From: an uncultured Gaiellaceae bacterium
Lineage (GTDB): Bacteria > Actinomycetota > Thermoleophilia > Gaiellales > Gaiellaceae
Direction: 5' to 3'
Assembly: GCA_963806955.1 (NCBI GenBank)
Contig: CAWDZG010000002.1
Location: 528,821 to 592,820, forward strand
Length of the DNA stretch: 64,000 nucleotides
Shown here: positions 30,041 through 64,000 of the stretch, one piece after another
How the letters are laid out: each line of letters opens with the position of its first letter
Position numbering within the stretch: position 1 is the stretch's first letter
Position numbers and translations under genes: made by a program
Notes under the pieces: model-generated
Databases searched by the model: none
Seen by the model: only the letters and a program-made list of their open reading frames with translations
Told to the model about the DNA's origin: nothing

Positions 30041-30065
30041 GGCCGAGGCAGGATAGCCTCGCCAC

Positions 30066-39477: not shown

Positions 39478-39516
39478 TTCTCTGCAGTCTCGTTTACGCT
39501 CGCCCCAATGCGCAAC

Positions 39517-39535
39517 ATGAAATTTCAAATTTCAT
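39517..39535. promoter_or_regulatory. 19-bp perfect AT-rich palindrome ATGAAATTTCAAATTTCAT (candidate operator)
   Basis: Lies in the 79-bp divergent region between the GntR-headed operon and the rraA-like/hyu/sox operon. It is the most AT-rich stretch I saw outside the 3-prime tail. Confidence 0.5.
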
Positions 39536-39556: not shown

Positions 39557-40144
39557 ATGTCGGAGCTCCTCTCCACCGCGATCGTGCTCGAGGCCGCCGC
39601 CGGAAGAGCCCGGGCCGTCCAGGGCCTGACCCACCTGACGCTGATGGACGCGATCTGCGCTCCGGCCGCCACGTGCGCGTGCGCGCCCGGCGACAACCTG
39701 GCCGCGCACAGGCTGCTGCTGGAGGCGCCGGAGGGGACGGCGCTCGTCGTCGACGCCGGGCACCGAACCGACACCGGCTACTTCGGCGAGCTGATGGCGA
39801 TGGACGCCGAGGGGCGAGAGCTGCAGGGCCTCGTGATCGACGGCCCGATCCGCGACGGCGGCGCGATCGGCGTGCTCGGCTTCCCGGTCTTCCACGCGGG
39901 CTTCGTCGCGACAGGGCCCGCGAAGCGGGAGGCGCCGTCCGTGGGCGAGCCCGTCAGCGTGGGCGGCGTCGAGGTCGCACCCGGCGACCAGATCGTCGCC
40001 GACAGCGACGCCGTGCTCGTCGTCCCGGCCGCCGACTGGCCGGCGATCGAGGCCGCCGCGCTCGAGCTCCTCGCGCGGGAGGACGAGATCCGCACGCACC
40101 TGCTGCGGGGCGGCCGCCTCGCGGAGATCCTGGAGCTGCCGTGA
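39557..40144 (+). CDS. RraA family protein (putative 4-hydroxy-2-oxoacid aldolase / oxaloacetate decarboxylase)
   Basis: PGDNLAAH...GTALVVDAGHRTDTGYFGELMA...GLVIDGPIRD...GFPVFHAG...GDQIVADSDAVLVVP follows the RraA/aldolase family pattern. Confidence 0.75.
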   Translation: MSELLSTAIVLEAAAGRARAVQGLTHLTLMDAICAPAATCACAPGDNLAAHRLLLEAPEGTALVVDAGHRTDTGYFGELMAMDAEGRELQGLVIDGPIRDGGAIGVLGFPVFHAGFVATGPAKREAPSVGEPVSVGGVEVAPGDQIVADSDAVLVVPAADWPAIEAAALELLAREDEIRTHLLRGGRLAEILELP

Positions 40145-42213
40145 CGGCGCCCGGCGCCGCGCGGGTCGGCGTCGACGTCGGCGGCACGTTCACCGACGTG
40201 ATCCTCCAGGGCGACGACGGGCGCGTGCTGGTGCGCAAGCTCCTCTCCACCCCTCCCCGCTACGACCGGGCGGTGGTCGAGGCCGTCGGCGCCCTGGCGG
40301 AGGCCGACGGCGGCACGGTCACCGAGGTCGTCCACGGCACCACGGTGGCGACGAACGCCGTGCTCGAGCGGCGCGGCAGCCCGACGGCGCTCGTGACGAC
40401 GAAGGGCTTCCGCGACGTGCTCGAGCTGCGGCGGCTGCGGATCCCGCACATGTACGACCTCTTCTGGCGCAAGCCGGCACCGCTCGTCGAGCGCCGCCTC
40501 CGCTTCGAGCTCGACGAGCGCGTGACCGCCGACGGCACCGTCCTGCGCCCGTTCGACGAGGCCGAGTGCCGCGCGCTCGCCGGCCGTCTGCGCGCGACCG
40601 GCGTCGAGTCGATCGCGGTCTGCTTCCTCCACTCGTACCTCCACCCCGGCCACGAAGAGCGCGCGGGCGAGATCCTCGCCGAGGAGCTGCCCGGCGCGAC
40701 GATCTCGCTCTCGAGCGCGATCCTGCGCGAGCAGCGCGAGTACGAGCGCTCCGCCACGACCGTCGTCAACGCGTACGTGCGGCCGCTGATGTCGTCGTAC
40801 GTCGACCGGATCCGCACCGGCCTCGACGAGCTCGGCCTCGACGGGCCGCTGCAGATCATGCAGTCGTCCGGCGGCGTGATGACCTCCGACGACACGAAGC
40901 TGAAGCCCGTCTTCGCGCTCGAGTCCGGCCCGGCCGCGGGAGTGGTCGCCGCCCGCGGCGTCGCCGAGCAGCTCGGGCTCGCAAACGTGATCGCGTTCGA
41001 CATGGGCGGCACGACCGCGAAGGCGTCGCTGATCGAGGACGGCGCGATCTCGCGCGGCCGCGAGTACGAGGTCGGCGGCTCGATGTCCGCGGGCAGCCGG
41101 CTGATCCGCGGTGCGGGCGAGCTGCTGCGGATCCCCACGATCGACATCGCCGAGGTCGGCGCCGGCGGCGGCAGCATCGCGTGGATCGACCCGGCCGGGG
41201 GGCTCCAGGTCGGCCCGCGCAGCGCGGGCGCCGATCCCGGGCCGGCCTGCTACGGACGCGGTGGGATCGAGCCGACGGTGACGGACGCCAATGTCGTGCT
41301 CGGCTTCATCCCCGAGGGCACCGTTGCGGACGGCCAGATCGAGATCGTGCGCGAGCTGGCGGAAGAGGCGGTCCGCCACGTCGCCGGGCCGCTCGGCCTG
41401 ACCATGCTGGAGGCCGCGAGCGGGATCCACCGGATCGCGAACGCGCGGATGGTGCGAGCGCTGCGCTCGGTCTCCTCCGAGAAGGGCCGCGATCCGCGCG
41501 AGTTCGCGCTGATCGCCTACGGCGGCTCCGGCCCGATCCACGCGGGCGGGCTCGCAGAGGACCTCGGCGTGCGCACGATTCTCGTCCCGGCGGTCGCCGG
41601 TCTCTTCAGCGCCGTCGGCCTCCTCTTCGCCAGGCCGGAGTTCCACGAGGTGCGCACCTGTCATCTCGACCTCGACGGAGGCGACCCGGACTCGGTCGCC
41701 GCGCTCCTCGCAGAGATGGAGGCACGGCTCGCACCTGCGCTCGCCGGCCGCGACGACGTCGAGTGGGCCCGCAGCGCCGACCTCCGCTACGGCGGCCAGA
41801 GCTGGGAGATCGAGGTCGAGCTGGCGCCCGGCCCGGTCGATCGCGCCGCTCTCACCGAGCTGCGCGAGCGCTTCGAGCAGGCGCACGAACGGCTCTACGG
41901 CGTGCGCGACCAGCCCGGCTCGCCGGTGGAGATCCGGGCCGTGCGGCTGGCGGCGCTCGGTGCGTCGGCGGCGTCCTCGTCGTTCCGCTTCGACGACGCG
42001 CGCGGCGAGGCCGGCTCGCAGATCAGACGGGTCGACATCGACGGCGACGAGCTCGATGCCCCGATCCGGCGTCGCCGCGACATCGGCGCGGCGCCCGAGC
42101 CCGGGCCGCTCCTCGTCGACGAGTACGACACGACCGTGATCGTCCGGCCCGGCTGGAGCGTCCGCCGCGACGAGGGCACCGGCACGCTGATCCTGGAGCG
42201 GGCCGATGCCTGA
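40141..42213 (+). CDS. hyuA: hydantoinase/oxoprolinase family, A (HyuA-type) subunit, copy 1
   Basis: RVGVDVGGTFTDV, FDMGGTTAK and AEVGAGGGSIAW are ASKHA-fold motifs of Hydantoinase_A. GTGA overlap upstream. Confidence 0.9.
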   Translation: MTAPGAARVGVDVGGTFTDVILQGDDGRVLVRKLLSTPPRYDRAVVEAVGALAEADGGTVTEVVHGTTVATNAVLERRGSPTALVTTKGFRDVLELRRLRIPHMYDLFWRKPAPLVERRLRFELDERVTADGTVLRPFDEAECRALAGRLRATGVESIAVCFLHSYLHPGHEERAGEILAEELPGATISLSSAILREQREYERSATTVVNAYVRPLMSSYVDRIRTGLDELGLDGPLQIMQSSGGVMTSDDTKLKPVFALESGPAAGVVAARGVAEQLGLANVIAFDMGGTTAKASLIEDGAISRGREYEVGGSMSAGSRLIRGAGELLRIPTIDIAEVGAGGGSIAWIDPAGGLQVGPRSAGADPGPACYGRGGIEPTVTDANVVLGFIPEGTVADGQIEIVRELAEEAVRHVAGPLGLTMLEAASGIHRIANARMVRALRSVSSEKGRDPREFALIAYGGSGPIHAGGLAEDLGVRTILVPAVAGLFSAVGLLFARPEFHEVRTCHLDLDGGDPDSVAALLAEMEARLAPALAGRDDVEWARSADLRYGGQSWEIEVELAPGPVDRAALTELRERFEQAHERLYGVRDQPGSPVEIRAVRLAALGASAASSSFRFDDARGEAGSQIRRVDIDGDELDAPIRRRRDIGAAPEPGPLLVDEYDTTVIVRPGWSVRRDEGTGTLILERADA

Positions 42214-43942
42214 GACGACCGCCCGGGTCGATCCCGTCACGCTCCAGATCGCCGGGAACGCGCTCGCCTCCGCGGCGGACGAGATGGCGACGACGATCTT
42301 CCGCACCGCGCACTCGAGCGTCGTCCGTGACGGGATGGACTTCTCCGCGAGCATCTGCGACGCGCTGGGCCGCACGGTCGCCCAGGCCGTGACCGTCCCC
42401 TTCCATCTCGGCTCGATCCCGGTCGCGATGGACGCGCTGCTCGCACGCTACGGCGGCCGGATGCAGCCGGGCGACGTCTTCCTGATGAACGACCCGTTCG
42501 ACGGCGGCATCCACCTGCAGGACCTGTTCGTCTTCAAGCCCGTCCACTTCGAGGGCGAGCTGATCGGCTTCACCTGCACGACCGCCCACCACGGCGACGT
42601 CGGCGGGCGCCTCCCCGGCTCGAGCGCGTGCGACAACACCGAGATCTTCCAGGAGGGGATCCGCCTGCCGTGGCTGCGGCTCTACGCGGCGGGCGAGCCC
42701 GTCGAGGACGTGTTCAAGATCGTCGAGGCGAACGTCCGGATCCCGCGGATGACGTTCGGCGACCTCGGCGCGCAGGTGGCGGCCTGCTCGGTCGCCGAGC
42801 GCGCCCTCGTCGGGCTGGCCGAGCGCCACGGCCGGGAGCAGCTCGCGCTGCTCTGCGACGCGCTGATCGACCACACCGAGCAGCTCGTCCGGCAGGAGAT
42901 CGCCACCTGGCCGGACGGGACTGCCTCGTTCACTGACTATCTCGGCTCCGACGGGATCGACGTCGTCGACGTGCCGATCACCGCGCACGTGACGATCGCG
43001 GGCGACGAGGTCACCGCCGACCTGACCGACTCGGCGCCGATGGTGCGCGGCTCGCTGAACAGCACGCGCTCCTTCGTGCAGGCCTGCGTCTACCAGGCCG
43101 TGCGCGCCGCGCTGACGGTGGAGGTGCCGAACACCTCGGGCGCGTTCCGGCCGATCCACGTGCTGACGAAGCCCGGCACGGTCGCCGAGGTGGTGATGCC
43201 CGGCGCGTCCTCGATGCGCGGCGTCACCGGCTTCCGCGTGCTCGACGCCGTCAACGGCGCGCTCGCGCAGCTGATCCCCGACCGGGTCGCCGCTGCGGGC
43301 GAGGGCGGCAACACGCTCGCGATCTTCGGCGCCGAGCGCCCCGAGGGGGGCCGTTTCGTCTTCTATGAGCTGGTCGTCGGCACGTGGGGCGCGACCCCGG
43401 AGGCCGACGGCAACGACGGCCTGACAAACCCCGCGAGCCTCGCGGCGAACGTCCCCGTCGAGGTCGCCGAGCAGGAGTATCCGATCCTGGTCGAGCGCTA
43501 CGGGCTCGTACCCGACTCGGGGGGCGCCGGCCTCCATCGCGGCGGGCTCGCGGTCGAGCGCGTCTGGCGCTGCCTGACGCCCCGCACCTCGCTGATCGTC
43601 CGCTCCGACCGGGCGAAGCACGCGCCCTACGGTCTGGCCGGCGGCGGGAAGGGTGCGACCTCGAGCAATCTGCTCGTGCATCCGGGCGGGAGCGAGGACG
43701 TGCTGCCGCCGATGTTCTCGACCGAGATCGGCATCGGCGATGTCTATGCGCACCGCACCGCGGGCGGCGGCGGCTGGGGCGATCCGCTCGAGCGCGACGT
43801 GGCCGCGGTCGCCCGCGACGTCGTCGACGAGAAGGTCAGCGTCGAGGCGGCGCTGGAGCTCTACGCCGTCGCGCTCGACGCGGACGGAGTTGTCGACCAC
43901 GAACACACGACGGCTCTGAGAGCCGAGAGGAGGAACGCGTGA
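42206..43942 (+). CDS. hyuB: hydantoinase B/oxoprolinase family, B (HyuB-type) subunit, copy 1
   Basis: 578 aa. DPVTLQIAGNAL...NDPFDGGIHLQD...TAHHGDVGG...GGGGWGDP is typical of Hydantoinase_B. Confidence 0.9.
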   Translation: MPETTARVDPVTLQIAGNALASAADEMATTIFRTAHSSVVRDGMDFSASICDALGRTVAQAVTVPFHLGSIPVAMDALLARYGGRMQPGDVFLMNDPFDGGIHLQDLFVFKPVHFEGELIGFTCTTAHHGDVGGRLPGSSACDNTEIFQEGIRLPWLRLYAAGEPVEDVFKIVEANVRIPRMTFGDLGAQVAACSVAERALVGLAERHGREQLALLCDALIDHTEQLVRQEIATWPDGTASFTDYLGSDGIDVVDVPITAHVTIAGDEVTADLTDSAPMVRGSLNSTRSFVQACVYQAVRAALTVEVPNTSGAFRPIHVLTKPGTVAEVVMPGASSMRGVTGFRVLDAVNGALAQLIPDRVAAAGEGGNTLAIFGAERPEGGRFVFYELVVGTWGATPEADGNDGLTNPASLAANVPVEVAEQEYPILVERYGLVPDSGGAGLHRGGLAVERVWRCLTPRTSLIVRSDRAKHAPYGLAGGGKGATSSNLLVHPGGSEDVLPPMFSTEIGIGDVYAHRTAGGGGWGDPLERDVAAVARDVVDEKVSVEAALELYAVALDADGVVDHEHTTALRAERRNA

Positions 43943-45130
43943 TCACGAAGGCCGACGCGGTCGTGATCGGAGGAGGGATCATCGGCGCGAGCACCGCCCA
44001 CTTCCTGACGGAGCTCGGCTTCGGCGAAGTCGCGCTCGTGGAGAAGTCGACGATCTGCGGCGGCTCGACGCAGTACTCCGCCGCGCACGTGCGCCAGCAC
44101 TATTCGAACGAGGTCGCGATCCGGCTCGCCGTGCGCGGCGCCGAGATGTTCGCGGACGCCGCGGAACGGCTCGGCGGCCCGGCGGGGTTCGTCCAGTGCG
44201 GCTACGCGGTGATCGCGCCGGCCGACCAGGAGCAGGCGATCCGCGACGTCGTCCCGGTACAGCAGTCGTTCGGGGTCCAGACCGAGATCCTGAGCCCGGA
44301 GGAGGTGCAGCACCGCTGGCCGGAGCTGGACGTGGAGGGGATCGCGCTCGGCTGCTTACGAGCGAACGTCCGGGTACGCCGACCCCGTCCTGACGACACA
44401 GTCGCTCGTCGGGTCGGCACAGGCGAAGGGGCTTCACGTCTACGAGGGCTGCACGGCGCTCGACATCACCGTCGCTGGAGGGCGGGTCGCGGCCGTCGTC
44501 ACGGGTGACGGGACGATCGCAACCGGGGTCGTCGTCAACGCGTGCGGGCCCTGGGGTGACAGGATCGGCCGGATGGTCGGGATCGACTATCCGCTCACGT
44601 TCAGCCGCGAGCACGAGGCGATCTTCGACGCGCCCGAGGGCTTCGGGGAGCTCCCGGTCATGTCCGACGCGGCGCAGCAGCTCTACTTCCGCCTTTACGG
44701 CGACGCAAAGGTGCTCGTCGGCCAGGGCTGGCCGAAGCAGAAGGAGCCGGCCGATCCGGAGGACTACGACGACGGCACGGACGCCGAGCACCTCGACTGG
44801 ATGGTGCCGAGGCTGGTGAACCGGCTGCCGTCGCTGCGGCCGACGCTCGGAGCCGAGAACTACGGCGGCACGTTCGTCACGGGCTACTCGGGCGTCTACG
44901 ACATCACCGAGGACTGGTACCCGATCGTCGGCGAGGAGGAGGTCGGCGGCTACTACTCGGCGTTCGGCGGGAGCGGCCACTGCTTCAAGCTCGGCCCGGC
45001 GCTGGGCGAGTCGCTCGCGCACGTGATCGCCGGGCACGAGCCGCCGATCGACATCTCGGGCCTCTCGGGCTCGCGCTTCGCCGAGGGAAAGACATTCGGC
45101 TCGGTCTGGGGGCCCGGGAACCGCGCGTGA
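43939..45130 (+). pseudogene. FAD-dependent oxidoreductase (DAO / SoxB-like), one frameshift near 44350
   Basis: ADAVVIGGGIIGASTAHFL in frame 43384..44508. YERTSGYADPVLTT...GFGGSGHCFKLGPALG in the 44573..45130 frame. Confidence 0.7.
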
Positions 45131-46222
45131 AGATCACGTCCGTCACCGCGACGCCGCTCGCAATCCCGCTCGAGCAGCCGTTCCACTGGCGCTCGGGCGT
45201 GCAGGAGCGCGCACACCTCGTCCTCTTCGCCGTCGAGACCGACGCGGGCGCGACGGGCTACGGCGAGTCGATCTGCGAGGACACGGCGGCGGTCGTCTCG
45301 TACGGGAACCTGATGGCGGCAGCGTTCGTCGGCCGCTCGCCGGGCGACGTCGAGGCGATCCTGGGCGAGCTCTGGCGCGACGGGCGCTGGCGCTTCTATC
45401 CGCACTGGTCGCAGCAGATCGCGAGCGGGATCGAGGTCGCGTGCTGGGATGCGCTCGGCAAGGCGCTCGGCGTGCCGGCGTCGACGTTCCTCGGCGGCCG
45501 CGTCCGGGACGAGGTCGACTTCATGGCCTTCCCGCAGGGCGACACGGCCGAGGAGCTCGCGCGGCATGCGGCCGAGCTTGCGGCCGCCGGCCACCGCGTC
45601 GTCTATCTCAAGGTCGGCCGGCGCCGGGCGCGACGACGAGGAGATCGTCGCGGCGGTGCGGGACGCGATCGGGCCCGAGCCGCTCCTGCGCGTCGACGCG
45701 AACGAGGCCTGGGACGTGCCGACCGCGATCGACGCCATCCGCCGGCTGGCCGAGTACGACCTCGACTGGGTCGAACAGCCGGTCGCGGCGGGGAACGTGA
45801 GCGGGCTCGCCCAGGTGCGGCGCGCGGTCTCGACGAGGATCGCCGCCGACCAGGCCGTCTACACGGCGCACGAGCTGCGCAACGTGCTCGAGAGCGAGGC
45901 GGCCGACGCGATCGTGCTCGGCAGCCACGAGGCCGGCGGGCTCTGGCGCTGGCGCCAGCTCGCCCACCTGGCCGAGGCGCACGGGATCCCGGTCAACCGC
46001 CACGCCTGCGTCGAGAGCTCGATCTCCACCTTCGCGGCGCTGCAGCTGACGGCCTGCGTGCCCAACCTGACGCTCGGCAACCAGGTGATGCACCAGCTGC
46101 TCGCCGGGCAGCTCGTGACCACGCCGCTCGATCTCGGCGGCGGCCGCGTGATGGTTCCCGACGGACCAGGGCTCGGCTTCGACCTCGACCACGACGCGGT
46201 CGAGAGGTACACGGTCCGGTGA
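45127..46222 (+). pseudogene. enolase-superfamily enzyme (mandelate racemase / muconate lactonizing family), one frameshift near 45620
   Basis: N-terminal capping domain (KITSVTATPLAIPLEQPF...) in frame 45127. Barrel domain with metal-ligand contexts RVDANEAWD, LDWVEQP and IAADQ in frame 45449..46222. Confidence 0.7.
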
Positions 46223-47871
46223 TGGATCCGATCACGTTCGAGGTGATCCGGAACGCGCTCGTCGCCGCGACCGACGAGATGGTGCTGGCGCTGAAGCGGA
46301 GCGCCTACTCGACGAACATCAAGACGCGCTCCGACTTCTCCTGCGCCTTCTTCGACGCCGAGCTGCGGGCGGTGGCCCAGGGCTTCACGCAGCCGGTCCA
46401 TCTCGGCTCGATGGTCGAGCAGGTGCCGCGGGCGGTGCGCGACTACGGCCCCGACGAGCTCGGGCCCGGCGACGTGCTGATCACGAACGACCCCTACCCG
46501 AGCGGCGTGCACCTGAACGACGTCTCGCTGATCTCGCCCGTCCACCACGAGGGCGAGCTGCTCGGCTACGTCGCGAACCTCGCCCACCACGTCGACGTCG
46601 GCGGCGGCGCGCCCGCCTCGATCGGCGCCTTCCGGGAGGTCTTCCAGGAGGGCGTGATCATCCCGCCCGTGAAGGTCGTCGAGGGCGGCCGGATCGTCGA
46701 GGACGTGTTCGCGCTGATCCTCGCCCAGATCCGCTCGAAGCACGAGACGGCAGGGGACTTCCGCGCCCAGATCGCGGCGAACACGACCGGGGTCCGGCGC
46801 CTCGGTGCGCTCGCCGACCGCCACGGCCGCGCAACGCTCGTGGCGGCGATGGCGGAGCTGCTCGACTACACCGAACGACGTACGCGATCTGCGATCGCAA
46901 ATCTGCCACACGGTGTTTACGACGCCGTGGGCACGGTCGACACCGACGGCTACACGGACGAGCCCGTCCGGCTGGCGGCGCGGATCGAGATCGGCCCCGA
47001 CGGCGTCGCGTTCGACCTCGCCGGCTCCGACCCGCAGCGGCGGGCACCGGTCAACTCGACGTACGCGCAGACGTTCTCCGCCTGCGCGTACGCGCTCAAG
47101 TGCCTGGTCGACGCCGACCTGCCCGTGAACGACGGCTTCTACCGGCTCGTGTCGCTCGAGGCGCCGCTCGGCAGCGTCACCAACTGCACGTGGCCGAGCC
47201 CGGTCGTGGGCGGCTGGGAGACGCAGACGCGGCTCGTCGACGTGATCTTCCGCGCGCTCCTGCCGGCCTTCCCCGACCGCCTGCCCGCCGGGACGAAGGC
47301 GATGATGTGCCACGCCGGCTTCGGCGGCGTCGACCCGGCGACGAACGCGTACTACTGCTTCCTCGAGACCTTCGGCGGCGGCTACGGCGCCCGGTCGGCG
47401 AGCGACGGCCCGGACGCCGTCCAGGCCCACGGGCAGAACACCGAGAACGCGCCGGTCGAGGAGACCGAGCTGAACTACCCGGTGCGCGTGACGCGCCTCT
47501 CGCTGGTCGACGACTCCGCAGGGCCGGGCCGATTCCGCGGCGGGCTCGGACTGCGGAAGGACTTCCGCTTCGACAGGCCGACCACGTTCACCGTCCTGGC
47601 CGACCGCACGAGTCACGGCCCCGCCGGCGCGTTCGGAGGCGGCGCAGGCGCGCCGGCGGAGTACGTCCTGATCCGCGACGGCGAGGAGCGGCGCCTGCCC
47701 GCGAAGGGGACGGTCGAGCTGCAGGCGGGCGACACGGTCAGCTACCGCACGTGCGGCGGCGGCGGCTACGGGCCGCCGGCGGAGCGCGACCGCGAGCTGG
47801 TCGCGCGCGACGTCCGCGAGGGCAAGGTCAGCCCCGAGCAGGCCCGGGAGGCGTACGCGTGGCAGGGATGA
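46222..47871 (+). CDS. hyuB: hydantoinase B/oxoprolinase family subunit, copy 2
   Basis: MDPITFEVIRNALVAATDEM...NDPYPSGVHLND...LAHHVDVGGG...CGGGGYGPP. An alternative GTG at 46219 gives a GTGA overlap. Confidence 0.9.
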   Translation: MDPITFEVIRNALVAATDEMVLALKRSAYSTNIKTRSDFSCAFFDAELRAVAQGFTQPVHLGSMVEQVPRAVRDYGPDELGPGDVLITNDPYPSGVHLNDVSLISPVHHEGELLGYVANLAHHVDVGGGAPASIGAFREVFQEGVIIPPVKVVEGGRIVEDVFALILAQIRSKHETAGDFRAQIAANTTGVRRLGALADRHGRATLVAAMAELLDYTERRTRSAIANLPHGVYDAVGTVDTDGYTDEPVRLAARIEIGPDGVAFDLAGSDPQRRAPVNSTYAQTFSACAYALKCLVDADLPVNDGFYRLVSLEAPLGSVTNCTWPSPVVGGWETQTRLVDVIFRALLPAFPDRLPAGTKAMMCHAGFGGVDPATNAYYCFLETFGGGYGARSASDGPDAVQAHGQNTENAPVEETELNYPVRVTRLSLVDDSAGPGRFRGGLGLRKDFRFDRPTTFTVLADRTSHGPAGAFGGGAGAPAEYVLIRDGEERRLPAKGTVELQAGDTVSYRTCGGGGYGPPAERDRELVARDVREGKVSPEQAREAYAWQG

Positions 47872-49574: not shown

Positions 49575-49599
49575 AGCTTGTGACTGATAGACACAAGCT
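49575..49599. repeat. hairpin repeat copy 1: AGCTTGTG-ACTGATAGA-CACAAGCT
   Basis: 8-bp perfect stem and 9-nt loop. The central 23 nt are identical to copy 2, which lies 60 bp downstream. Confidence 0.8.
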
Positions 49600-49634
49600 C
49601 CCTTTCGAGCACGCAACCATGCGGGAAGGAGGGG

Positions 49635-49659
49635 CGCTTGTGACTGATAGACACAAGCG
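49635..49659. repeat. hairpin repeat copy 2: CGCTTGTG-ACTGATAGA-CACAAGCG
   Basis: Same 23-nt core. The outermost pair is C-G instead of A-T, so pairing is preserved. GGAGG at 49628-49632 lies 7 nt upstream of the GTG at 49640 in the left arm. Confidence 0.8.
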
Positions 49660-49668
49660 GTCGTCGGC

Positions 49669-53631: not shown

Positions 53632-53869
53632 ATGTCGTTCCTCGTCCCCTGTCCCAACTGCGGCGACCGCGACGTGAACGAGTTCGGCTACCGCGGCGAG
53701 GTGACGACGCGGCCGGTCGGAGCGGCCGACGCTCGCGGAGCTCTCGCGCTACGTCTACTCGCGCCGGAACGTCGCGGGCGTGCAGCGGGAGTGGTGGTGC
53801 CACCGGCACGGCTGCGGTCAGTGGTTCGTCGCCGAGCGCGACACGCAGACGAACGAGTTCGCCGGATGA
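53632..53869 (+). pseudogene. soxD: sarcosine oxidase delta subunit-like, one frameshift near 53712
   Basis: MSFLVPCPNCGDRDVNEFGYRGEVTTRP, then after a shift ERPTLAELSRYVYSRRNVAGVQREWWCHRHGCGQWFVAERDTQTNEF, giving a Cys3His zinc pattern. The TGA overlaps the soxA ATG (ATGA). Confidence 0.65.
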
Positions 53870-56415
53870 GGCTGGAGCGGCAACCGGGCGAGCTGCTCGA
53901 CCGCTCGCGCACGGTCTCCTTCCGCTTCGGCTCGCAGGAGATCCAGGCGTTCGCGGGCGACACGTTCGGCTCGGCCCTCTACGCGTCCGGACGCCGCGTC
54001 TTCTCGCGCAGCTTCAAGTACCACCGGCCGCGCGGGCTCCTCTGCTGCTCGGGCCACTGCGCCAACTGCATGATGACCGTCGACGGCGTCCCCAACGTCC
54101 GCGTTTGCGCCGAGCCCGTGCGCGAGGGCGCGGTCGTCGCCGGCCAGAACGCGCTCGGCTCAATCGACCGCGACCTCCTCTCCGTCGTCGACCGCGCCGG
54201 CGGCCCGTTCACGCCGGTCGGCTTCTACTACCGGACGATGATCCGGCCGCGACGCGCCTGGCCGCTGTACGAGAAGGCGCTGCGCTCGGTCGCCGGGCTC
54301 GGCCGCGTGCCGCCTGACGGCGGGCACCGCCGCTACGACCGGGAGCACCGCCGCGCGCGCGTGCTCGTGATCGGCGGCGGTCGCAGCGGCCGTGAGGCGG
54401 CGCTGACCGCCGCGGCGGAAGGCCCGGGCGTCGTGCTCGTGGACGAAAACCTGAGGCCGCTCGAGCTGCCCGGCGTCGAGGTGGTCGCGCCCGGACGGGC
54501 GCTCGCGATCTACGAGGGTGGCCTCGTGCCCGTCGACGCGGGCACGCTGCTGCTCCGCTACCGGGCCGAGCGGATCGTCGTCGCGACCGGCACCGTCGAG
54601 CAGCCGCTCGTCTTCCCCGGCAACGACCTCGTCGGCGTGCTCCTGCCGGGCGCGGTGCGTCGGCTCGTCGGCGACTGGTCGGTGAAGCCCGGCGAGCGGG
54701 CGGTCGTGATCGGCGGCGAGGGTGCCGTCGAGTCGCTCGTCCTCGCCGGCGTCGAGATCGCGGAGCTCGCCGACCCCGCCTCGGTCCGTTCGATCTCGGC
54801 GCGCGGCAGCAAGGGGCGCCTGCGCGAGGTCGAGCTCGACGGGAAGACGGTCGAGTGCGACCTCGCCGTCGTCTCGGGCGGCCGCCAGCCCGCCTACTCC
54901 CTGCTCGCCCAGGCCGGCGCCCGCGTCGAGTACGACGCGGTGCGCCGGGTCTTCGTCCCCCGCGACCTCCCGGCCGGGATCGACGCCGTCGGCTCGATCA
55001 CCGGCGGCGGCTCGACCGCGGCGCCGAGCTACCGCGGCAAGGACGCGAAGGGACGCTGCTTCGTCTGCGTCTGCGAGGACGTGACCGAGAAGGACGTCGA
55101 GCGCGCGATCCGCGAGGGCTTCGACTCGATCGAGCTCTCGAAGCGGTACACGACCGTGACGATGGGCCCCTGCCAGGGCAAGTACTGCCAGCTCCCGTCG
55201 ATCCGCCTGCACGCCGCCAAGACGGGCGTCGACGAGGCCGCGATCGGGACGACGACGGCGCGGCCGCCGTGGGCGCCCGTCGAGCTCGGCCTGCTCGCGG
55301 GCCGCCACCACGATCCGGTCCGCCGCAGCTCGCTGCACGAGCGGCACGAGCAGGCGGGCGCGAACTTCGTCTGGGCCGGAGCGTGGCAGCGGCCCCACTC
55401 CTACGGCGCCCCCGAGGAGGAGGTCGCCGCAGTGCACGCAGACCTGGGCGTGATCGACGTCTCCACGCTCGGCAAGCTGCTCGTCGAGGGCCCCGGCGCG
55501 GCGCCCTTCCTGGAGCGGCTCTACCCGAACCGCTTCGCCGACCTCGCCGAGGGCCGCGTCCGCTACACGGTGCTCGGCACCGACGGCGGCCGGATCATGG
55601 ACGACGGCACCGTCGCCCGGCTCGGCGCTGACCTCTTCTACGTGACGACGACCTCGACCGGCGCCGACGCCGTGCACGAGTGGTTCGAGTGGTGGAACGC
55701 CGTCTGGGGCTACGACGTCGACGTCGTCAACGTCACCGGCGCGCTCGCCGCGCTCAACCTCGCCGGGCCGCGGGCGCGCGAGGCGCTCGCCGGGCTGACG
55801 GGCGCGGACGTCTCCTCAGAGGCCTTCCGCTACCTCGACGCGAAGCAGATCGAGGTCGCGGGCGTGCGGGCGCTTGCGCTGCGGATCGGCTTCGTCGGCG
55901 AGCTCGGCTACGAGCTCCACTTCGCGAGCCCGGCCGGCGAGCACGTGTGGGACACGCTCGTCGCGGCGGGCGCGCGCCCCTTCGGGCTCGAGCCGCAGCG
56001 CGTGCTCCGGCTGGAGAAGCAGCACGTGATCGTCGGCCAGGACACCGACACGGAGTCGAACCTGCTCGGCGCCGGCATGTCCTGGCTGCCGAAGCTCGAC
56101 AAGGACGACTTCGTCGGCAAGTGGGCGCTCGAGCACATGGGCGGGCGCGACCTCCCCGAGCGCCTCGTCGGCTTCCGGATGGACGTGCTCCCGCTCGAGG
56201 GCGCGCAGGTCGTGCGCGGCGGCCGCCCGGTCGGCCGCGTGACGAGCGCGCGCGCCAGCGCTGCCGCGGGCGGCGTGATCGGCCTCGCCTGGGTGCCGCC
56301 CGACCTCGCGGTCGAGGACGCCGAGCTGCACGTCCAGGTGGACGGGGCGCCGCAGCCCGGACGCGTGCGGCTGAAGCCGTTCTACGACCCGGCGGGCGAG
56401 AGGATGCGCGCATGA
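53866..56415 (+). CDS. soxA: sarcosine oxidase alpha subunit-like (2Fe-2S-like N-terminus, FAD/NAD domain, C-terminal GcvT folate-binding domain)
   Basis: FKYHRPRGLLCCSGHCANCMMTVDG; VLVIGGGRSGREAAL; C-terminal aminomethyltransferase-like region (GVIDVSTLGKLLVEGP...GELGYELH...). No frameshift over 2.5 kb. Confidence 0.85.
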   Translation: MRLERQPGELLDRSRTVSFRFGSQEIQAFAGDTFGSALYASGRRVFSRSFKYHRPRGLLCCSGHCANCMMTVDGVPNVRVCAEPVREGAVVAGQNALGSIDRDLLSVVDRAGGPFTPVGFYYRTMIRPRRAWPLYEKALRSVAGLGRVPPDGGHRRYDREHRRARVLVIGGGRSGREAALTAAAEGPGVVLVDENLRPLELPGVEVVAPGRALAIYEGGLVPVDAGTLLLRYRAERIVVATGTVEQPLVFPGNDLVGVLLPGAVRRLVGDWSVKPGERAVVIGGEGAVESLVLAGVEIAELADPASVRSISARGSKGRLREVELDGKTVECDLAVVSGGRQPAYSLLAQAGARVEYDAVRRVFVPRDLPAGIDAVGSITGGGSTAAPSYRGKDAKGRCFVCVCEDVTEKDVERAIREGFDSIELSKRYTTVTMGPCQGKYCQLPSIRLHAAKTGVDEAAIGTTTARPPWAPVELGLLAGRHHDPVRRSSLHERHEQAGANFVWAGAWQRPHSYGAPEEEVAAVHADLGVIDVSTLGKLLVEGPGAAPFLERLYPNRFADLAEGRVRYTVLGTDGGRIMDDGTVARLGADLFYVTTTSTGADAVHEWFEWWNAVWGYDVDVVNVTGALAALNLAGPRAREALAGLTGADVSSEAFRYLDAKQIEVAGVRALALRIGFVGELGYELHFASPAGEHVWDTLVAAGARPFGLEPQRVLRLEKQHVIVGQDTDTESNLLGAGMSWLPKLDKDDFVGKWALEHMGGRDLPERLVGFRMDVLPLEGAQVVRGGRPVGRVTSARASAAAGGVIGLAWVPPDLAVEDAELHVQVDGAPQPGRVRLKPFYDPAGERMRA

Positions 56416-56816
56416 GCGCGCTCGCGTTCCTGTCCGCGGCCACGGAGGCGACCGGCGTCGTCGAGCTGCGCGGGGACGTGACCTCGTTCGCGGAGGGTCG
56501 GGTCCTGCAGCTGACGCCGCGCCGCGCCGTCGCGCTCTGCGACGACGCGCCCGCGCTCGTCGCCGAGGCCCGCGCCCAGGGCCTGCGCGCCTACGACCTC
56601 ACCGCCGCCTACGCCGAGCTGCGGATCGAGAGCGAGCCGCTGCTCCGCCGCCTGACCGAGGTCGCGGCCGACGCGCCCACGGCCGCGCCGGTCGCGGGCG
56701 ACGTCCCGGCGCTGATCTTCCCGCTCGGCGACGGCGCCTACGACCTCTACGTGCCGCAGGAGCTCGGGCGGTACGTGCGCGAGGTGGTCGACGACCTGCG
56801 GGCGGGGCTCGCGTGA
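56412..56816 (+). CDS. soxG: sarcosine oxidase gamma subunit-like (short)
   Basis: 134 aa. The call rests mainly on position between soxA and soxB with ATGA/GTGA overlaps and a weak family resemblance. It is shorter than the SoxG proteins I recall. Confidence 0.5.
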   Translation: MSALAFLSAATEATGVVELRGDVTSFAEGRVLQLTPRRAVALCDDAPALVAEARAQGLRAYDLTAAYAELRIESEPLLRRLTEVAADAPTAAPVAGDVPALIFPLGDGAYDLYVPQELGRYVREVVDDLRAGLA

Positions 56817-58028
56817 AGGACGTCTTCCGCGTCCGCCGCATGTGGCGCCCGCCCGGCGAGCTCAAGCCGCAGCTACGACGTCGTGATCGTCGGCGGCGGC
56901 TCGCACGGGCTCGCGACGGCGTACAACCTCGCCCGCCGGCACGGGATCACGAACGTCGCCGTGCTCGAGCAGTCGTACATCGGCTCGGGCGCGGCCGGCC
57001 GCAACACGACGATCATCCGCTCGAACTACCGCACGCCCGAGGGCGTCGCCTTCTACCAGCGGAGCGTCGAGCTGTACGAGCGGCTCTCGGCCGAGCTCGA
57101 CCTGAACCTGATGTTCTCGCAGCGCGGCCACCTGACGCTCGCCCACACCGAGCGCTCGCTGGCGACGATGCACGAGCGCGCCGAGGTGAACCGGCTGCTC
57201 GGCGTCGACTCGCGCGTGATCGACGTGGACGAGGTCGCGCGGCTCTGCCCCGAGCTCGACGTCTCGCAGCGCCCGGCCTATCCGGTGCTGGGCGCGCTCT
57301 ACCACCCGCGCGGCGGGATCATCCGCCACGACGCCGTCGTCTGGGGCTACGCGCGCGCCGCCGACCGCGCCGGCGTCGAGATCCATCCCAACACGACCGT
57401 GACGGGGATCGAGCGCGAGGGCGGCCGCGTCACCGGCGTCCGCACGAGCCGCGGCCTCGTCCGGGCGGGCACCGTGATCAGCGCCACCGCGGGCTGGTCG
57501 TCGCTCACGACCGGGCTCGCCGGGATCGAGCTGCCGATCACGACGCACATCCTGCAGGCGTTCGTGACCGAGCCGGTGAAGCCGTTCCTCGACACGATCC
57601 TCGTCTCGGCGCAGCTGCACGTGTACGTCTCGCAGACCGACCGGGGCGAGTTCCTGATCGGCTCCGAGATCGAGCCGTACACGACCTACAAGGGGATCGG
57701 CACGTTCCCGTTCCTCGAGACCTCCGCGCGGCACGCCCTCGCGCTGCTGCCGCAGCTCGAGCGGCTGAAGGTGCTGCGCACGTGGACGGGCCTCTGCGAC
57801 CTCTCGCCCGACTACAGCCCGATCCTCGGCGCGACCGAGCTGGAGGGCTTCCACGTCTCGGCCGGCTGGGGCACGTACGGCTTCAAGGCGGCGCCGATCG
57901 TCGGCGTGACGCTGGCCGAGCTCGTCGCGACCGGCCGCACGCCCGACCTGATCGCGCCCTTCTCGCTCGAGCGGTTCGCGAACGACCGTCCGGTGTCCGA
58001 GCTGGCCGCAGCGGCGGTGTCCCATTAG
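56813..58028 (+). pseudogene. soxB: sarcosine oxidase beta subunit-like FAD oxidoreductase, one frameshift near 56872
   Basis: VKDVFRVRRMWRPPGELKP in frame 56813, then YDVVIVGGGSHGLATAYNLA...GWGTYGFKAAP in frame 56883..58028. Confidence 0.8.
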
Positions 58029-58029
58029 C

Positions 58030-59187
58030 GCGCTCGAGTTCGTCCCCGTCCCGGCCGGCCCGTTCCCGTTCGGCGACGACCCGGCCCGCCTCTACCCGCC
58101 GGAGGAGGACGAGACGCCGCGCCGGGTCGTCCAGGTGGACGGCTTCCGCATCTCGCGCGTCCCCGTCACCGACGAGGACGGCGTGCCGCTGACCTACGTC
58201 TCGCGCGACGACGCCGAGGCGTACTGCGCCGAGCACGGCGTGCGCCTGCCGACCGAGGTCGAGTGGGAGGCGGCGGCCCGCGGCGGCGACGACCGGCTCT
58301 GGCCGTGGGGCGACGAGCCGCCCGACACGACGCGCGCCACCTACGACCGGGGCATCGGCGCGCCCGTCTCCGGCCGGGCTGCATCCCGCGGGCGCCGCGC
58401 CCTGCGGCGCGCTCGACCTGGCCGGGAACGTGTGGGAGTGGACGGCCGACGGCGCCGCGCGCGGCGGCTCGTACCTGAGCGGCCCCGGCGAGCTGCTCTG
58501 CACGGCGCGGCTGCCGGTGCATCCCGCGGCGCGCGACCCCTACGTCGGCTTCCGCGTCGTCGCCGTCGAGCCGACGCCGGAGCTTCGACTGGGTCGAGGT
58601 GCCCGCGGGCGAGTACGTGCTCGGCCGCGACCCGGGCGAGACCCGGCAGCGGCACGTCGACGTCGACGCCTTCGAGCTCGACCCGCACGCCGGTCACGAA
58701 CGCGCAGTACGAGCGCTTCGTCGCCGAGACCGGCGCGGCCGCGCCGCCGCACTGGCCCGCGCCGGGCGATCATCCGGTCGTGTTCGTCGACTGGCACGAC
58801 GCGTCCGCCTTCTGCGCCTGGGCGGGCGGGCGGCTGCCGACCGAGGCCGAGTGGGAGAAGGCGGCCCGCGGCACCGACGGGCGCACCTACCCGTGGGGCG
58901 ACGAGGAGGACGAGGGCCGCGCCGCGGTCGGGGCCGGGCTGAAGCGCGGCACGACGTCGCCGGTCGGCTCCCACCCGGACGGGGCGAGCCCCTACGGCCT
59001 GCTCGACCTGGCCGGGAACGTCTGGGAGTGGACATCCACGGAGTACCCGCCGGGCGAGCGCGTGCTCCGCGGCGGCTCGTTCGCGAGCCCGGGCCTCGCC
59101 TGGGCGCGCTGCACGATGCGCAGTCACAGCCGGCCGGGCCGGCGCCAAGCACACATCGGCTTTCGGGTCGCGAAAGGAGTGGAATGA
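58030..59187 (+). pseudogene. tandem FGE-sulfatase (SUMF1/EgtB-C-like) domain gene, at least three frameshifts and no in-frame start
   Basis: Two copies of the domain: [13 protein letters not shown]...[21 protein letters not shown]...GFRVV and [12 protein letters not shown]...[12 protein letters not shown]...[16 protein letters not shown]...RGGSF...GFRVA. Frames change near 58375, 58578 and 58688. Confidence 0.6.
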
Positions 59188-60320
59188 ACGTCGACGGTGA
59201 CCGCCTGCGTGACCTGACCCTCGAGCTCGTCGAGGTCGCGAGCCCGACCGGCGACACGGTCGACGTGTCGCGGCTGTACGCGCGCCGGCTGGAGGAGCTG
59301 GGGATGGAGGTCGAGCTGCTCGACCAGCGCTTCCCGCAGACGCCGGTCGTCGTCGGCCGGCTCGCGGGCGACCGGCCGGGGCCGACGATCGTCCTCAACG
59401 GCCACCTCGACACCGTGCCGATCCCGCACGCGGAGCCGCGGGTCGAGGGCGAGCGGATCTACGGGCGCGGCTCGGCGGACATGAAGGGCGCGCTCGCCTG
59501 CGCGGCCGAGGCGGCGCGCGTCGTCGCCGGGCGCGGCTCCTTCCCGGGCGAGCTCGTGATCGTCGCGATCGGCCTGCACGAGGCGCCGGGCGGCCGCGGC
59601 GAGGACCTGACCTGGCTGCTGCAGGAGACGGGCTTCAAGGCCGACCTGGGCGTCGTCTGCGAGCTGGGCGGCCCGACGCTGCCGGTCGCCCACCTGGGCT
59701 GCGCGACGTTCGAGCTGACGATCCGGCGCGAGGGGATGGTCACGCACGAGCTGCAGACGCCGGCCGGGACGCCGAACCCGATCCACGTCGCGGCGCGGGT
59801 GATCGAGGCGATCCGCGCGCGCAACGAGGAGCTGGCCACGGTGGAGCACGAGTGGGTCGGCGCCGAGACGTACTTCCTCGGCGAGGCGCACGGCGGCGAC
59901 TTCTACAACCGCCATCCGATCGAGTTCCGCTTCGTCGGCACGCGGCGCTGGGCGCCCGGGAACACGCTCGAGGCCGTCGAGGAGGAGCTCCGCGAGCTGC
60001 TGGCGCCGATCGCGGCCGAGTCGGGCTGCGCGATCGACCTCGACCTGCGCCTCGTGCGCGGCGCCTACCGGATCGACCCCGACGACCGGCTCGTCGTCGC
60101 GCTCCGCGAGGCCTACGAGGAGGTGACCGGCCGCGAGCTGCCGCTCGACGGCGTCAAGGTCGTCGCCGACGGCGCGATCTTCCACGCGGCCGGGATCCCG
60201 ACCGTCTACCACGGCCCGATGGGCACGGGCGCGCACGGCGACGTCGAGTCGATCGAGGTCGCGGAGCTCGTGCGGGCGACGAAGGTCTACCTCGCGCTGC
60301 TGGAGCGACTCTGGGCGTGA
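59184..60320 (+). CDS. M20 family metallohydrolase (ArgE/DapE/carbamoylase-type)
   Basis: NGHLDTVP and GRGSADMKG metal-ligand motifs. ATGA overlap upstream. Confidence 0.85.
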
Positions 60321-61811
60321 GCTACCAGGAACTCGTCGGGGACTTCCGCTGGGAGCTGCCGGAGCGGCTCAACCTCGGCGTCGACGTCTGCGAGCGGCAG
60401 CCGCGCGACCGGACGGCGATCCTCGTCACCGACGGGCGCGAGGTGACGCGGCGGGTCACGTTCGGCGAGCTCTCGGCCGACTCGAACCGGCTCGCGAACG
60501 CGCTGCGGGCGAAGGGGATCGGGCCGGGCGACCGGGTCGGGATCGCGCTGCCGCAGCGGCCCGAGACGGCGGTGGCGCACATCGCGGTCTACAAGCTCGG
60601 CGCGATCGCGGTGCCGCTCTCGACCCGTTTCGGCCCCGACGCGATGGCGGTGCGGCTCGGCGACGCCGACCCGGCTCTCGTGATCGCCGACCGCGAGCTC
60701 GACGGCGTCGCGACGATCGACGTCGACCGCGAGCTGCCGTTCCTGCTGGCCGCTGCCCCCGACCGCTTCGAGCCCGCGGCGACGGCGCCCGACACGCCGG
60801 CGCTGATCGTCTACACCTCGGGCACGACCGGCCCGCCGAAGGGCGCGCTGCACGGGCACCGGATCCTGGCGGGCCACCTGCCCGGCTTCGACCTCTCGCA
60901 CGACTTCTTCCCGCAGCCCGGCGACGTGATCTGGTCGCCGGCCGACTGGGCCTGGATGGGCGGCCTCTTCGACGTGCTCATGCCCGGCCTCTACCACGGC
61001 GTGCCGGTGGTCGCGTTCCAGACGACGAAGTTCGACCCGGAGCGGACGTACGAGCTGGTCGAGCGGCTGCGGATCCGGAACGTCTTCCTGCCCGCGACGG
61101 CGCTGCGGCTGCTCGCGGCCGCGGACGGCCCGCGCCTGTCGCTGCGGACGATCGCGAGCGGCGGCGAGCCGGTCGGCGCCGAGACCGCCGCCTGGTGCGA
61201 GGAGCACCTGGGCGCGCGGCTGAACGAGTTCTACGGCCAGACCGAGGCGAACCTGCTGCTCGGCAACTGCGCCGCCTGGCCGGCGAAGCCCGGCTCGATG
61301 GGGCTCCCCTACCCCGGCCACGACGTGCGGCTCGTCGACGGCGAGGTGACGGTCGGCGTCGAGGGCGACCCGGTCGCGTTCCTCGGCTACTGGCGGAACG
61401 AGGCGGCGACGGCGGAGAAGGTGCGCGACGGCCGCCTGCACACCGGCGACCTGGCCGAGGTCGACGACGAGGGCTACTTCCGCTTCGTCGGCCGCACCGA
61501 CGACCTGATCTCGAGCGCCGGCCACCGGATCGGCCCGGGCGAGATCGAGGAGTGCCTCGTCCGCCACCCGCAGGTCGCGCTCGCGGCGGTGATCGGGATC
61601 CCGGACGAGGTGCGCGGCGAGGCGATCAAGGCGTTCGTCGTCGCCGCGTCGCCGTCGGAGGAGCTGGCGGCGGAGCTGAAGGCGCTCGTGCGGGAGCGGC
61701 TGGCGGCGTACGAGGTGCCGCGCGAGATCGAGTTCGTGGACGGAGCTGCCGCTGACGACGAGCGGGAAGATCCGGCGGAACGAGCTGCGGGCGCGCGAGC
61801 GGCCCGCCTAG
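60317..61811 (+). pseudogene. AMP-dependent synthetase/ligase (acyl-CoA synthetase family), one frameshift near 61745
   Basis: AMP-binding motif IVYTSGTTGPPKG, plus YGQTE, TGD and GRTDD. The conserved tail ELPLTTSGKIRRNELRA is read only after a shift and ends at TAG 61809-61811. Confidence 0.8.
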
Positions 61812-63610: not shown

Positions 63611-64000
63611 GCGGACTCGACCAGCCGCCGTGGTCACAGCCCGCCCGATCTTCACGTCGGCCGTACGCACTTCCAGGAGTCGCTCGATGAACTCGACGCC
63701 TTTACGCGGCTCAACCGAATTGGCTGACGATGACGCTGGCCTCGTAAATCTTTCGCGACTCGCTGAGGCAGTGGAGCGCGGGCCGATGACGTCGGGAAGC
63801 TGAAGCCGTTCGCGCGAGCCTCGTCCGAAGACGAACGTCGGAGCCCAACGCGCTGCTCGTGTCGTGTGGTTCTGCCGCGCCTCTCCACGAGATCCGCGAG
63901 TCAACGCCAGGACGCCAGCTGCCGGCCGCTTGAGTCGAGCTGGTGCCGCGCGTTGACACGGCCGGTGCGCATCGCTCGACTCCGTCTCATGACGGCGAAC

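Follow-up and report, generated by a model that had tools for sequence, protein, structure and literature searches.

The characterised non-carboxylase members of the HyuA/HyuB family, which include hydantoinases, 5-oxoprolinases, caprolactamase and other lactamases, are hydrolytic; caprolactamase forms an A-B-B-A tetramer with a B-B core, and ATP-dependent opening by HyuAB-type enzymes followed by the action of an M20-family hydrolase (hyuC) constitutes a known logic (PMC8453981). The N-methylglutamate (NMG) pathway of methylamine use comprises GMAS (glnT), NMG synthase (mgsABC/glxBCD) and an NMG dehydrogenase (mgdABCD, annotated as soxBDAG) (PMC5023235, PMC3160333). Relatives of enzymes from both systems meet in the 64,000-nucleotide stretch of DNA from an uncultured Gaiellaceae bacterium investigated here (the window, at its full length), where 16 genes are arranged between positions 39557 and 61811. 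We read this region as a GntR-controlled, translationally coupled catabolic operon for a cyclic amide that carries an inserted Mgd-like module, and we assign this reading a probability of about 55%; the amide would probably be N-alkylated. Hardly any members of the Gaiellales, Actinomycetota that abound in soil, have been cultured, which makes conserved operons one of the few hints to their diet. All parts of the cluster come from well-known families, and uncultured lineages often carry clusters whose substrate is unknown; what sets this one apart is its conservation in more than 50 genomes, the combination of one A subunit with two B paralogues (A + B2 + B3), a conserved candidate operator and the apparent recruitment of a dehydrogenase from methylamine metabolism.

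Gene content, conservation and regulation

The G+C content of the window is about 72%, and raw lists of open reading frames (ORFs) are therefore unreliable. Genes were framed by their third-position GC and then searched with Pfam and NCBIfam profiles, which located all 16 genes of the initial annotation on the + strand, in the order given there, including five Hyu subunits with full-profile Pfam matches:

39557..40144, + strand: RraA-like / HMG-CHA aldolase-family protein (Pfam RraA-like 109 bits; all NCBIfam scores below cutoff)
40141..42213, + strand: hyuA1, ATP-binding A subunit (Hydant_A_N and Hydantoinase_A; CapA 516 bits, cutoff 1000)
42206..43942, + strand: hyuB1 (Hydantoinase_B 541 bits; CapB 306 bits, cutoff 1000)
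43939..45130, + strand: DAO-family amine oxidoreductase (Pfam DAO in two frames; +1 at 44358)
45127..46222, + strand: enolase-superfamily protein, MLE subgroup (MR_MLE_N and MR_MLE_C in different frames; +1 at 45620)
46219..47871, + strand: hyuB2 (Hydantoinase_B 580 bits)
47868..49574, + strand: hyuB3 (Hydantoinase_B 558 bits)
49576..49658, + strand: twin-hairpin element (palindromes at 49576-49598 and 49636-49658)
49669..51734, + strand: hyuA2 (domains split over frames; 687 aa when corrected; CapA 563 bits, cutoff 1000)
51731..53631, + strand: cocE, CocE/NonD alpha/beta hydrolase (Peptidase_S15 and PepX_C across three frames)
53632..53869, + strand: soxD/mgdB-like delta subunit (TIGR01374 80.9 bits, cutoff 116.5; +1 at 53715)
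53866..56415, + strand: soxA/mgdC-like alpha subunit, 849 aa (Fer2_4, SO_alpha_A3, GCV_T, GCV_T_C; TIGR01372 585 bits, cutoff 1164)
56412..56816, + strand: soxG/mgdD-like gamma subunit, 134 aa (assigned by position and homology; no profile match)
56813..58028, + strand: soxB/mgdA-like beta subunit (TIGR01373 474 bits, cutoff 529; +1 at 56871)
~58033..59187, + strand: two-repeat FGE-sulfatase-like protein (Pfam FGE-sulfatase in two stretches; start codon uncertain)
59184..60320, + strand: M20 metallohydrolase, DapE/ArgE-like (Pfam; NCBIfam ArgE/DapE 113 bits, cutoff 218)
60317..61811, + strand: AMP-forming acyl-CoA/acid ligase (AMP-binding and AMP-binding_C; NCBIfam acetate-CoA ligase and MbcS below cutoff)

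The genes are tightly joined. The GTGA/ATGA coupling described in the initial annotation is found at eleven junctions with a 4-nt overlap, a further junction overlaps by 8 nt and another directly abuts (TAGATG). soxB is followed by a gap of about 4 nt, after which the start codon of the FGE gene was not identified, and the sole real gap, of 94 nt, is located ahead of hyuA2. The sox genes are connected to their neighbours by TAGATG, ATGA and GTGA junctions. The proposal of a single translationally coupled unit built on HyuA/HyuB-type enzymes is thus supported. Of the claimed uninterrupted run, the gene order stands and the intact reading frames do not, since frame breaks interrupt 8 of the 16 genes in the uncorrected sequence, and position 61811 proves to be the true ligase stop only once the last frame break is corrected. 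No characterised cluster matched and no protein scored at an NCBIfam equivalog cutoff, which agrees with the earlier view that several of the genes belong to no nameable pathway; a literature search on clusters combining N-methylhydantoin and sarcosine oxidase, on PDB 2PGW and on the N-methylhydantoinase structure found no similar cluster.

A scan with HyuB3, restricted to one genome per species, retrieved 80 loci at 74-90% identity, whose source labels are nearly all Gaiellaceae, Gaiellales, Thermoleophilia or unclassified Actinomycetota, and every window gene was compared with these loci by tblastn. The gene neighbourhood, which the initial annotation had left to be compared among relatives, is syntenic in these Gaiellales loci, and more than 50 genomes at species level retain the cluster. 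Its conserved core consists of gntR, hyuA1, hyuB1, a variable slot, hyuB2, hyuB3, hyuA2, cocE, the FGE gene, the M20 gene and the ligase, with the FGE gene detected in 41 of 50 loci and the ligase in 30 of 50, the latter number being limited by the length of the flanks. Out of 66 loci, the variable slot contains the DAO gene only (27), the enolase-family gene only (16), both (12) or neither (11), and rraA is an accessory present in 9-14 of 56 loci. The sox genes were found in only three of 60 informative loci, residing at the same site as in the window in two of them (L004 and L025) and upstream of gntR in the third (L073), and the proposed combination of hyu, M20 and sox genes is thus not the conserved unit. 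At the window's site, the module is found in three species-level genomes at 81-92% identity. Against plasmids, tblastn returned only haloarchaeal matches of at most 45% identity.

Downstream of the cluster, on the opposite strand, the flanks of 25 relatives carry a D-aminoacylase-like amidohydrolase that lies beside, or is fused with, a class I/II aminotransferase, and 13 loci contain a second CocE-family hydrolase, both named by eye; these genes fit an N-acyl or D-amino-acid theme. Two Gaiellales-type clusters at 79-85% identity (L063 and L076) are filed under the names 'Asaia bogorensis' and 'Planctomycetota' metagenome-assembled genome (MAG), labels that probably reflect binning or labelling errors.

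The regulator belongs to a divergent gntR-glcD-FAH-glcD operon, whose presence next to the cluster Pfam, NCBIfam and tblastn confirm, and of the 80 related loci 56 have it next to hyuA1:

35351..36760, - strand: glcD-like FAD-linked oxidase, distal in the divergent unit (Pfam FAD_binding_4 and FAD-oxidase_C; NCBIfam glcD 330 bits, cutoff 568)
36718..37380, - strand: FAH-family hydrolase/decarboxylase (best NCBIfam model 2,4-didehydro-3-deoxy-L-rhamnonate hydrolase, 239 bits, cutoff 500)
37381..38791, - strand: glcD-like FAD-linked oxidase (frame break near 38473)
38782..39528 (longest ORF), - strand: gntR, GntR/FCD-family regulator (Pfam GntR and FCD)
39517..39535, no strand: palindrome, candidate operator, in the spacer between gntR and the operon

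The start of gntR is probably the ATG at 39458. The AT-rich spacer between this gene and the operon contains a perfect 19-nt palindrome, ATGAAATTT-C-AAATTTCAT, which is found again at the corresponding position of 41 out of 56 loci with up to 4 mismatches, in 9 of them exactly, and which has almost no other sites in 1.43 Mb. The sequence ATGAAATTTCAAATTTCAT is thus a promising candidate for the operator of the GntR/FCD regulator, and the ligand of GntR at this conserved palindrome would name the substrate of the pathway. The start codon of the operon is located 21 nt past the palindrome, leaving a leader that is short or absent. A scan for promoter and terminator consensus sequences returned no promoter-like and one terminator-like site, below the counts in shuffled sequence, and Rfam and tRNA scans detected nothing inside the operon.

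The Hyu enzymes and their partners

The five Hyu subunits match their Pfam profiles over the full length (E 1e-52 to 1e-174), and A and B genes are adjacent. In all cases CapA or CapB is the best NCBIfam model (NF050156, NF050157), with scores of 516 (HyuA1), 563 (HyuA2), 306 (HyuB1), 284 (HyuB2) and 270 bits (HyuB3) that stay below the cutoff of 1000. The position within the family is reflected in the bit scores against PDB entries, which, listed in the order N-methylhydantoinase, caprolactamase, acetophenone carboxylase and acetone carboxylase, are 279, 224, 69 and 38 for HyuB3, 275, 256, 147 and 61 for HyuB1 and 510, 405, 302 and 252 for HyuA2. By these similarities, the enzymes belong to the hydrolytic branch and not to that of the acetone and acetophenone carboxylases, and they are predicted to open the ring of a cyclic amide, either a lactam or a hydantoin, in an ATP-dependent manner. 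An acetophenone-carboxylase-like explanation of the extra subunit was considered and rejected in light of the low carboxylase scores; in NCBIfam, ApcA and ApcC match HyuA-type subunits and only ApcD matches the HyuB type, a pattern that fits an enzyme combining two HyuA-like subunits with a single HyuB-like one, opposite to what the window encodes.

The sequences of HyuA1 and HyuA2 are 45% identical and HyuB1 shares 36-38% with HyuB2 and HyuB3, which identifies A1B1 and A2-B2-B3 as two old and distinct enzymes at the level of their sequences. HyuB2 and HyuB3 are 79% identical to each other. Their genes are found in tandem in 71 related loci and as a single copy in two. Closest similarity to the window pairs the leading copy with B2 and the following copy with B3 in 56 of 57 loci, which makes the duplication an old one with both products retained. 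Given the A-B-B-A architecture of caprolactamase and the conserved pair of B paralogues, we expect by analogy that one A2 and two different B subunits probably assemble as an A2-B2-B3-A2 tetramer. To our knowledge, such a heterodimeric B core has not been described as a subunit arrangement in the HyuA/HyuB family.

The resemblance to caprolactamase CapAB (Pseudomonas jessenii, PDB 6YRA), to related ATP-dependent lactamases, which are of interest for nylon-monomer and lactam biocatalysis, and to 5-oxoprolinases includes the same two-subunit family, the adjacency of A and B genes and strong full-length PDB matches. Unlike CapAB, the window encodes two pairs instead of one, together with a conserved extra B paralogue, and its proteins score at about one quarter to one half of the equivalog cutoff (270-563 vs 1000). 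The genetic context also differs, since the companions in the window are CocE, FGE repeats, M20, ligase and sox genes, whereas those of the caprolactam pathway are an aminotransferase and a dehydrogenase. The N-methylhydantoinase in the PDB is a fused chain of 1288 aa, in contrast to the separate subunits found here.

Among the partner enzymes, the DAO-family protein, whose match was restored by the deletion of a single base, is most similar in the PDB to the beta subunit of proline dehydrogenase from P. horikoshii (137 bits), followed by dimethylglycine oxidases, enzymes whose substrates are secondary and tertiary amines, and we thus regard it as a putative secondary-amine oxidoreductase. The enolase-family protein of the MLE subgroup finds its best PDB match in 2pgw (245 bits), an entry that carries the generic name 'muconate cycloisomerase' and for which a literature search found no functional assignment. 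CocE, with 380 bits for TIGR00976, is the sole protein of the operon above a curated cutoff and it matches cocaine esterase with 255 bits. The tandem FGE-sulfatase-domain gene that had been described retains two repeats of this fold after correction against L075; its scores for SenA (160, cutoff 420) and EgtB (150, cutoff 360) remain below family level, no DinB domain was detected with Pfam or NCBIfam, and by eye the paired catalytic cysteines of FGE, as we take this motif to be, are not both present. The M20 protein had been envisaged as a carbamoylase. Its PDB matches are DapE, ArgE and other non-carbamoylase M20 enzymes only, the best with 49 bits, and among the NCBIfam and PDB matches listed there is no L-carbamoylase-type enzyme, beta-alanine synthase or allantoate amidohydrolase. 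The protein is thus DapE/ArgE-like, and the case for an N-carbamoylsarcosine step is therefore weakened.

The sox module and the predicted pathway

Four co-encoded subunits, delta, alpha, gamma and beta, are present in the order D-A-G-B. SoxB aligns over its full length with the beta subunit of heterotetrameric sarcosine oxidase (TSOX, 373 bits), and the histidine of its RHD motif, which we take to be the covalent FMN carrier, matches that of KHD in 3ADA_B. SoxA contains a folate-binding GCV_T domain (229 bits in Pfam), and in comparison with the PDB it is the C-terminal folate domain that matches (220 bits), the N-terminal half being weakly similar and divergent. SoxD shows a Cys/His pattern that presumably binds zinc. 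SoxG has no match among Pfam and NCBIfam hidden Markov models (HMMs) and is 33-73% identical to the gene at the same position in related sox modules. The module belongs to the SoxBDAG family, as the initial annotation implied; since scores do not reach the subfamily cutoffs (SoxA 585 vs 1164, SoxB 474 vs 529, SoxD 81 vs 116.5) and the nearest kin are NMG-linked, its identity as a sarcosine oxidase is not established.

These kin emerged from a metagenome scan with SoxA, in which the closest 80 loci share 64-70% identity. Wherever the contig is long enough, soxD-A-G-B accompany soxA, the four genes travelling as one module, and none of the 80 loci contains hyu, cocE, FGE, M20 or ligase genes. 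Instead, the neighbours include a type III glutamine synthetase (GS-III; TIGR03105, 596 bits, above cutoff), a class II amidotransferase, a GXGXG protein and an FMN-binding glutamate-synthase-like protein; a formate-tetrahydrofolate ligase (fhs), which scores above cutoff, also recurs, and so do an Amt transporter, an IclR regulator and an FchA-like protein. Since they match the genes described for methylamine use (PMC5023235, PMC3160333), we identify these neighbours as the NMG pathway set, and at least 46 of the 80 loci adjoin one or more of its genes (GS-III, mgsABC-like genes or fhs). In a neighbour-joining tree of SoxB, calculated without support values, rooted on the TSOX beta subunit of Corynebacterium and including 44 metagenomic sequences, the window protein and those of L025 and L004 form a clade that is nested among NMG-linked sequences (35 of the 44), whereas the L073 protein is located on a separate branch and the TSOX outgroup on a long separate branch. 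On this basis the module is best described as an NMG-dehydrogenase-like SoxBDAG enzyme that was inserted between cocE and the FGE gene in one sub-lineage, and the genomic context of its closest relatives points to N-methylglutamate instead of sarcosine as the substrate. This would amount to an apparent transfer of an NMG-dehydrogenase module from the methylamine pathway into a cyclic-amide operon.

With MgdABCD (Methyloversatilis universalis; soxBDAG in SAR11), the module shares four subunits and a folate-binding alpha subunit, a likeness drawn from homologues encoded in NMG clusters. It differs by the D-A-G-B order, by being embedded in a hyu operon and by the absence of gmaS or mgsABC nearby: homologues of GS-III, GATase, the GXGXG protein, the FMN subunit and fhs were found neither in the 64-kb window nor in the 80 hyu loci. 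With TSOX (Corynebacterium, Stenotrophomonas; PDB 3AD7, 2GAG), it shares the full-length SoxB alignment, the SoxA folate domain and the SoxD Cys/His pattern; in contrast to it, SoxA counts 849 aa vs about 965, SoxG is a 134-aa protein without HMM match and all subunits score below their cutoffs.

Apart from the window, soil contigs from the metagenome scan (L081-L160, e.g. L117, L123, L130 and L131) show the apparent order gmaS, mgsABC-like genes, soxD-A-G-B and fhs, and many add an IclR or GntR regulator, an FchA-like gene and an Amt transporter. The NMG methylamine pathway thus looks widespread in high-GC soil bacteria.

In the pathway that we infer for the operon, the two Hyu enzymes would consume ATP to open the cyclic amide, and the N-substituted amino acid that results would be hydrolysed or deacylated by the M20 protein and CocE. 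The DAO and enolase-family enzymes would oxidise or epimerise a secondary amine or an amino acid, the latter enzyme possibly as racemase or cycloisomerase. In strains bearing the sox genes, the Mgd-like enzyme might pass an N-methyl group to tetrahydrofolate to leave a plain amino acid, glutamate-like or glycine, and the acid fragment would be activated by the acid-CoA ligase. Because the family includes 5-oxoprolinase and the demethylase is NMG-dehydrogenase-like, an intermediate of the N-methyl-oxoproline or N-methyl-glutamate type is a coherent guess. Its most specific form, an undescribed ATP-dependent pathway in which an N-methylated cyclic amide (e.g. N-methyl-5-oxoproline or a compound resembling N-methyl-hydantoin-propionate) is opened by HyuA2-HyuB2-HyuB3 to an N-methyl-glutamate-like product that is demethylated by the co-opted module, we regard as doubtful.

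Several observations weigh against the interpretation as a catabolic cyclic-amide operon with an Mgd-like insertion. The sox genes are missing from 57 of the 60 informative relatives and their link to the core pathway could be incidental, none of the operon's proteins attains an NCBIfam equivalog cutoff, a transporter gene is absent from the 16-gene operon, the functions of the ligase and of the RraA-like and FGE-repeat proteins are left unexplained, and the insertions that break the reading frames, where examined at base level, lie outside homopolymers (cttAcgag, tcacGcgtc, gatcGatcc). The module might instead be an unrelated passenger, an NMG dehydrogenase for methylamine use that came to reside in a highly expressed operon whose core pathway does not involve N-methyl groups. 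Such a role would agree with its occurrence at this position in only two of the 60 informative relatives besides the window, with the location of its relatives, which are usually found in gmaS-mgsABC-sox-fhs clusters, and with the L073 copy, which lies outside the operon and on another branch of the tree. It is harder to reconcile with the lack of gmaS, mgsABC and fhs in the window and the 80 hyu loci, which leaves the enzyme without pathway partners nearby, with its tight coupling to cocE and the downstream genes, with its retention in three species-level genomes, where it occupies one shared site and is 81-92% identical, and with the frequent presence in the cluster of DAO as a second secondary-amine oxidoreductase. 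While unlikely, this explanation retains an appreciable share of our belief.

A creatinine-type route, which would proceed from N-methylhydantoin via N-carbamoylsarcosine to sarcosine with M20 acting as carbamoylase and sox as a true sarcosine oxidase, appears improbable. The naming of the best PDB match of HyuB1, HyuB3 and HyuA2 as N-methylhydantoinase, the full-length alignment of SoxB with TSOX including the RHD histidine, and the folate-binding domain of SoxA would all be expected from it, and the combination of HyuAB with an M20 enzyme resembles the N-methylhydantoin amidohydrolase/creatinine pathway and hyuABC of Pseudomonas sp. NS671. However, the M20 protein of the window is DapE/ArgE-like with no carbamoylase among the matches listed, the carbamoylsarcosine amidase of the isochorismatase type and creatinine deaminase are encoded by none of the 16 genes according to Pfam, as had been noted at the outset, the sox subunits score below their cutoffs and are nested among homologues from the NMG pathway, and 57 of 60 relatives keep hyu and M20 while missing sox. 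A biosynthetic cluster for a small molecule or modified amino acid would make use of an AMP-forming ligase, an FGE/EgtB-like fold, an enolase-superfamily enzyme and an M20 protein, all of which are present; we grant it a slim chance in view of the GntR/FCD regulator with its divergent glcD-FAH-glcD unit, the absence of a carrier protein, non-ribosomal peptide or polyketide synthase, methyltransferase and exporter among the 16 genes (Pfam), the hydrolytic nature of the family's characterised non-carboxylase members and the accessory genes of relatives, which by eye look like hydrolases, an aminotransferase and dehydrogenases.

Frame breaks and minor features

The disruption of 8 of the 16 genes can be traced to 12 insertions of net +1 each, located in the genes of DAO (44358), the enolase-family protein (45620), hyuA2 (50359 and 51682), cocE (52923, where it amounts to net 4 nt, and 53352), soxD (53715), soxB (56871), FGE (58361, 58575 and 58681) and the ligase (~61740). 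Their positions were mapped against the orthologue in L025, an intact short-read MAG, in the case of FGE via L074 and L075 and in that of the ligase via L050. Upon deletion of the insertions, full-length proteins are obtained with no internal stops, which over intact stretches are 73-92% identical to L025. Among the consequences of the breaks, soxD becomes artificially joined to the soxA ORF, and the raw ligase ORF overruns to 61996 because of the break near 61740, its proper C-terminus residing in the next frame and ending at 61811. As given, the sequence would have half of the genes miscalled as pseudogenes or fusions. An ORF at 53287-53631 that had been considered as soxD was rejected, since it corresponds to the frame-shifted C-terminal PepX_C portion of cocE, and the view that the tandem FGE gene is a frameshift artefact was equally rejected, as two FGE-like repeats remain after correction.

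Outside the operon, the glcD gene is broken too, the L025 orthologue aligning by tblastn in segments at 38791-38474 and 38472-37387 in different frames, and an unrelated DAO-family gene at 30057-31260 is split near 30430 between its FAD-binding N-terminus and the region matching Pfam DAO 79-353. Other long-read 'MFD' MAGs carry breaks in the operon genes too, at different and seemingly random sites and mostly by shifts of +1, whereas L025 has no breaks. The absence of stops after correction, the damage to unrelated genes and the differing break sites of other MAGs make assembly error, and not gene decay, the most likely origin of the 12 frame breaks. That the operon is decaying, with 12 real frameshifts and half of its genes pseudogenes, could be argued from the fact that the breaks stand in the sequence as given and that the insertions are not homopolymeric, location in homopolymers being the classic signature of long-read errors. 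Yet the removal of single bases leaves no stops and no other lesions and all 12 events have the same direction, which together with the breaks in genes outside the operon, the differing sites in MFD MAGs and the intact short-read L025 makes decay very improbable. The +1 pattern resembles a systematic bias of basecalling or polishing, and such a bias would lead automatic annotation to call many pseudogenes.

The twin-hairpin element noted previously is present in the gap between hyuB3 and hyuA2 as two identical 23-nt palindromes, GCTTGTGACTGATAGACACAAGC, with a predicted RNA fold of -44.5 kcal/mol (z = -4.4). Comparable twin hairpins with different stem sequences are found at the same junction in L004, L034 and L050, single copies are located at other junctions in L018 and L069, and in L025 and L003 hyuB3 and hyuA2 overlap or abut without a gap. 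The element could be a small mobile or regulatory intercistronic unit.

The approximately 2.2 kb of DNA on the 3' side of the ligase (61812-64000) have a G+C content of 58-69% and no clear coding signature; its three largest ORFs gave no Pfam match and no similarity to the 160 related loci was detected, and this region may be strain-specific or recently acquired DNA. At the other end of the window, the coding-frame signature switches three times within about 1 kb (3481-4500) in pieces without Pfam match, upstream of an intact pyridoxal-phosphate enzyme of Cys/Met metabolism (4483-5619), and this stretch may be another gene broken by frame errors.

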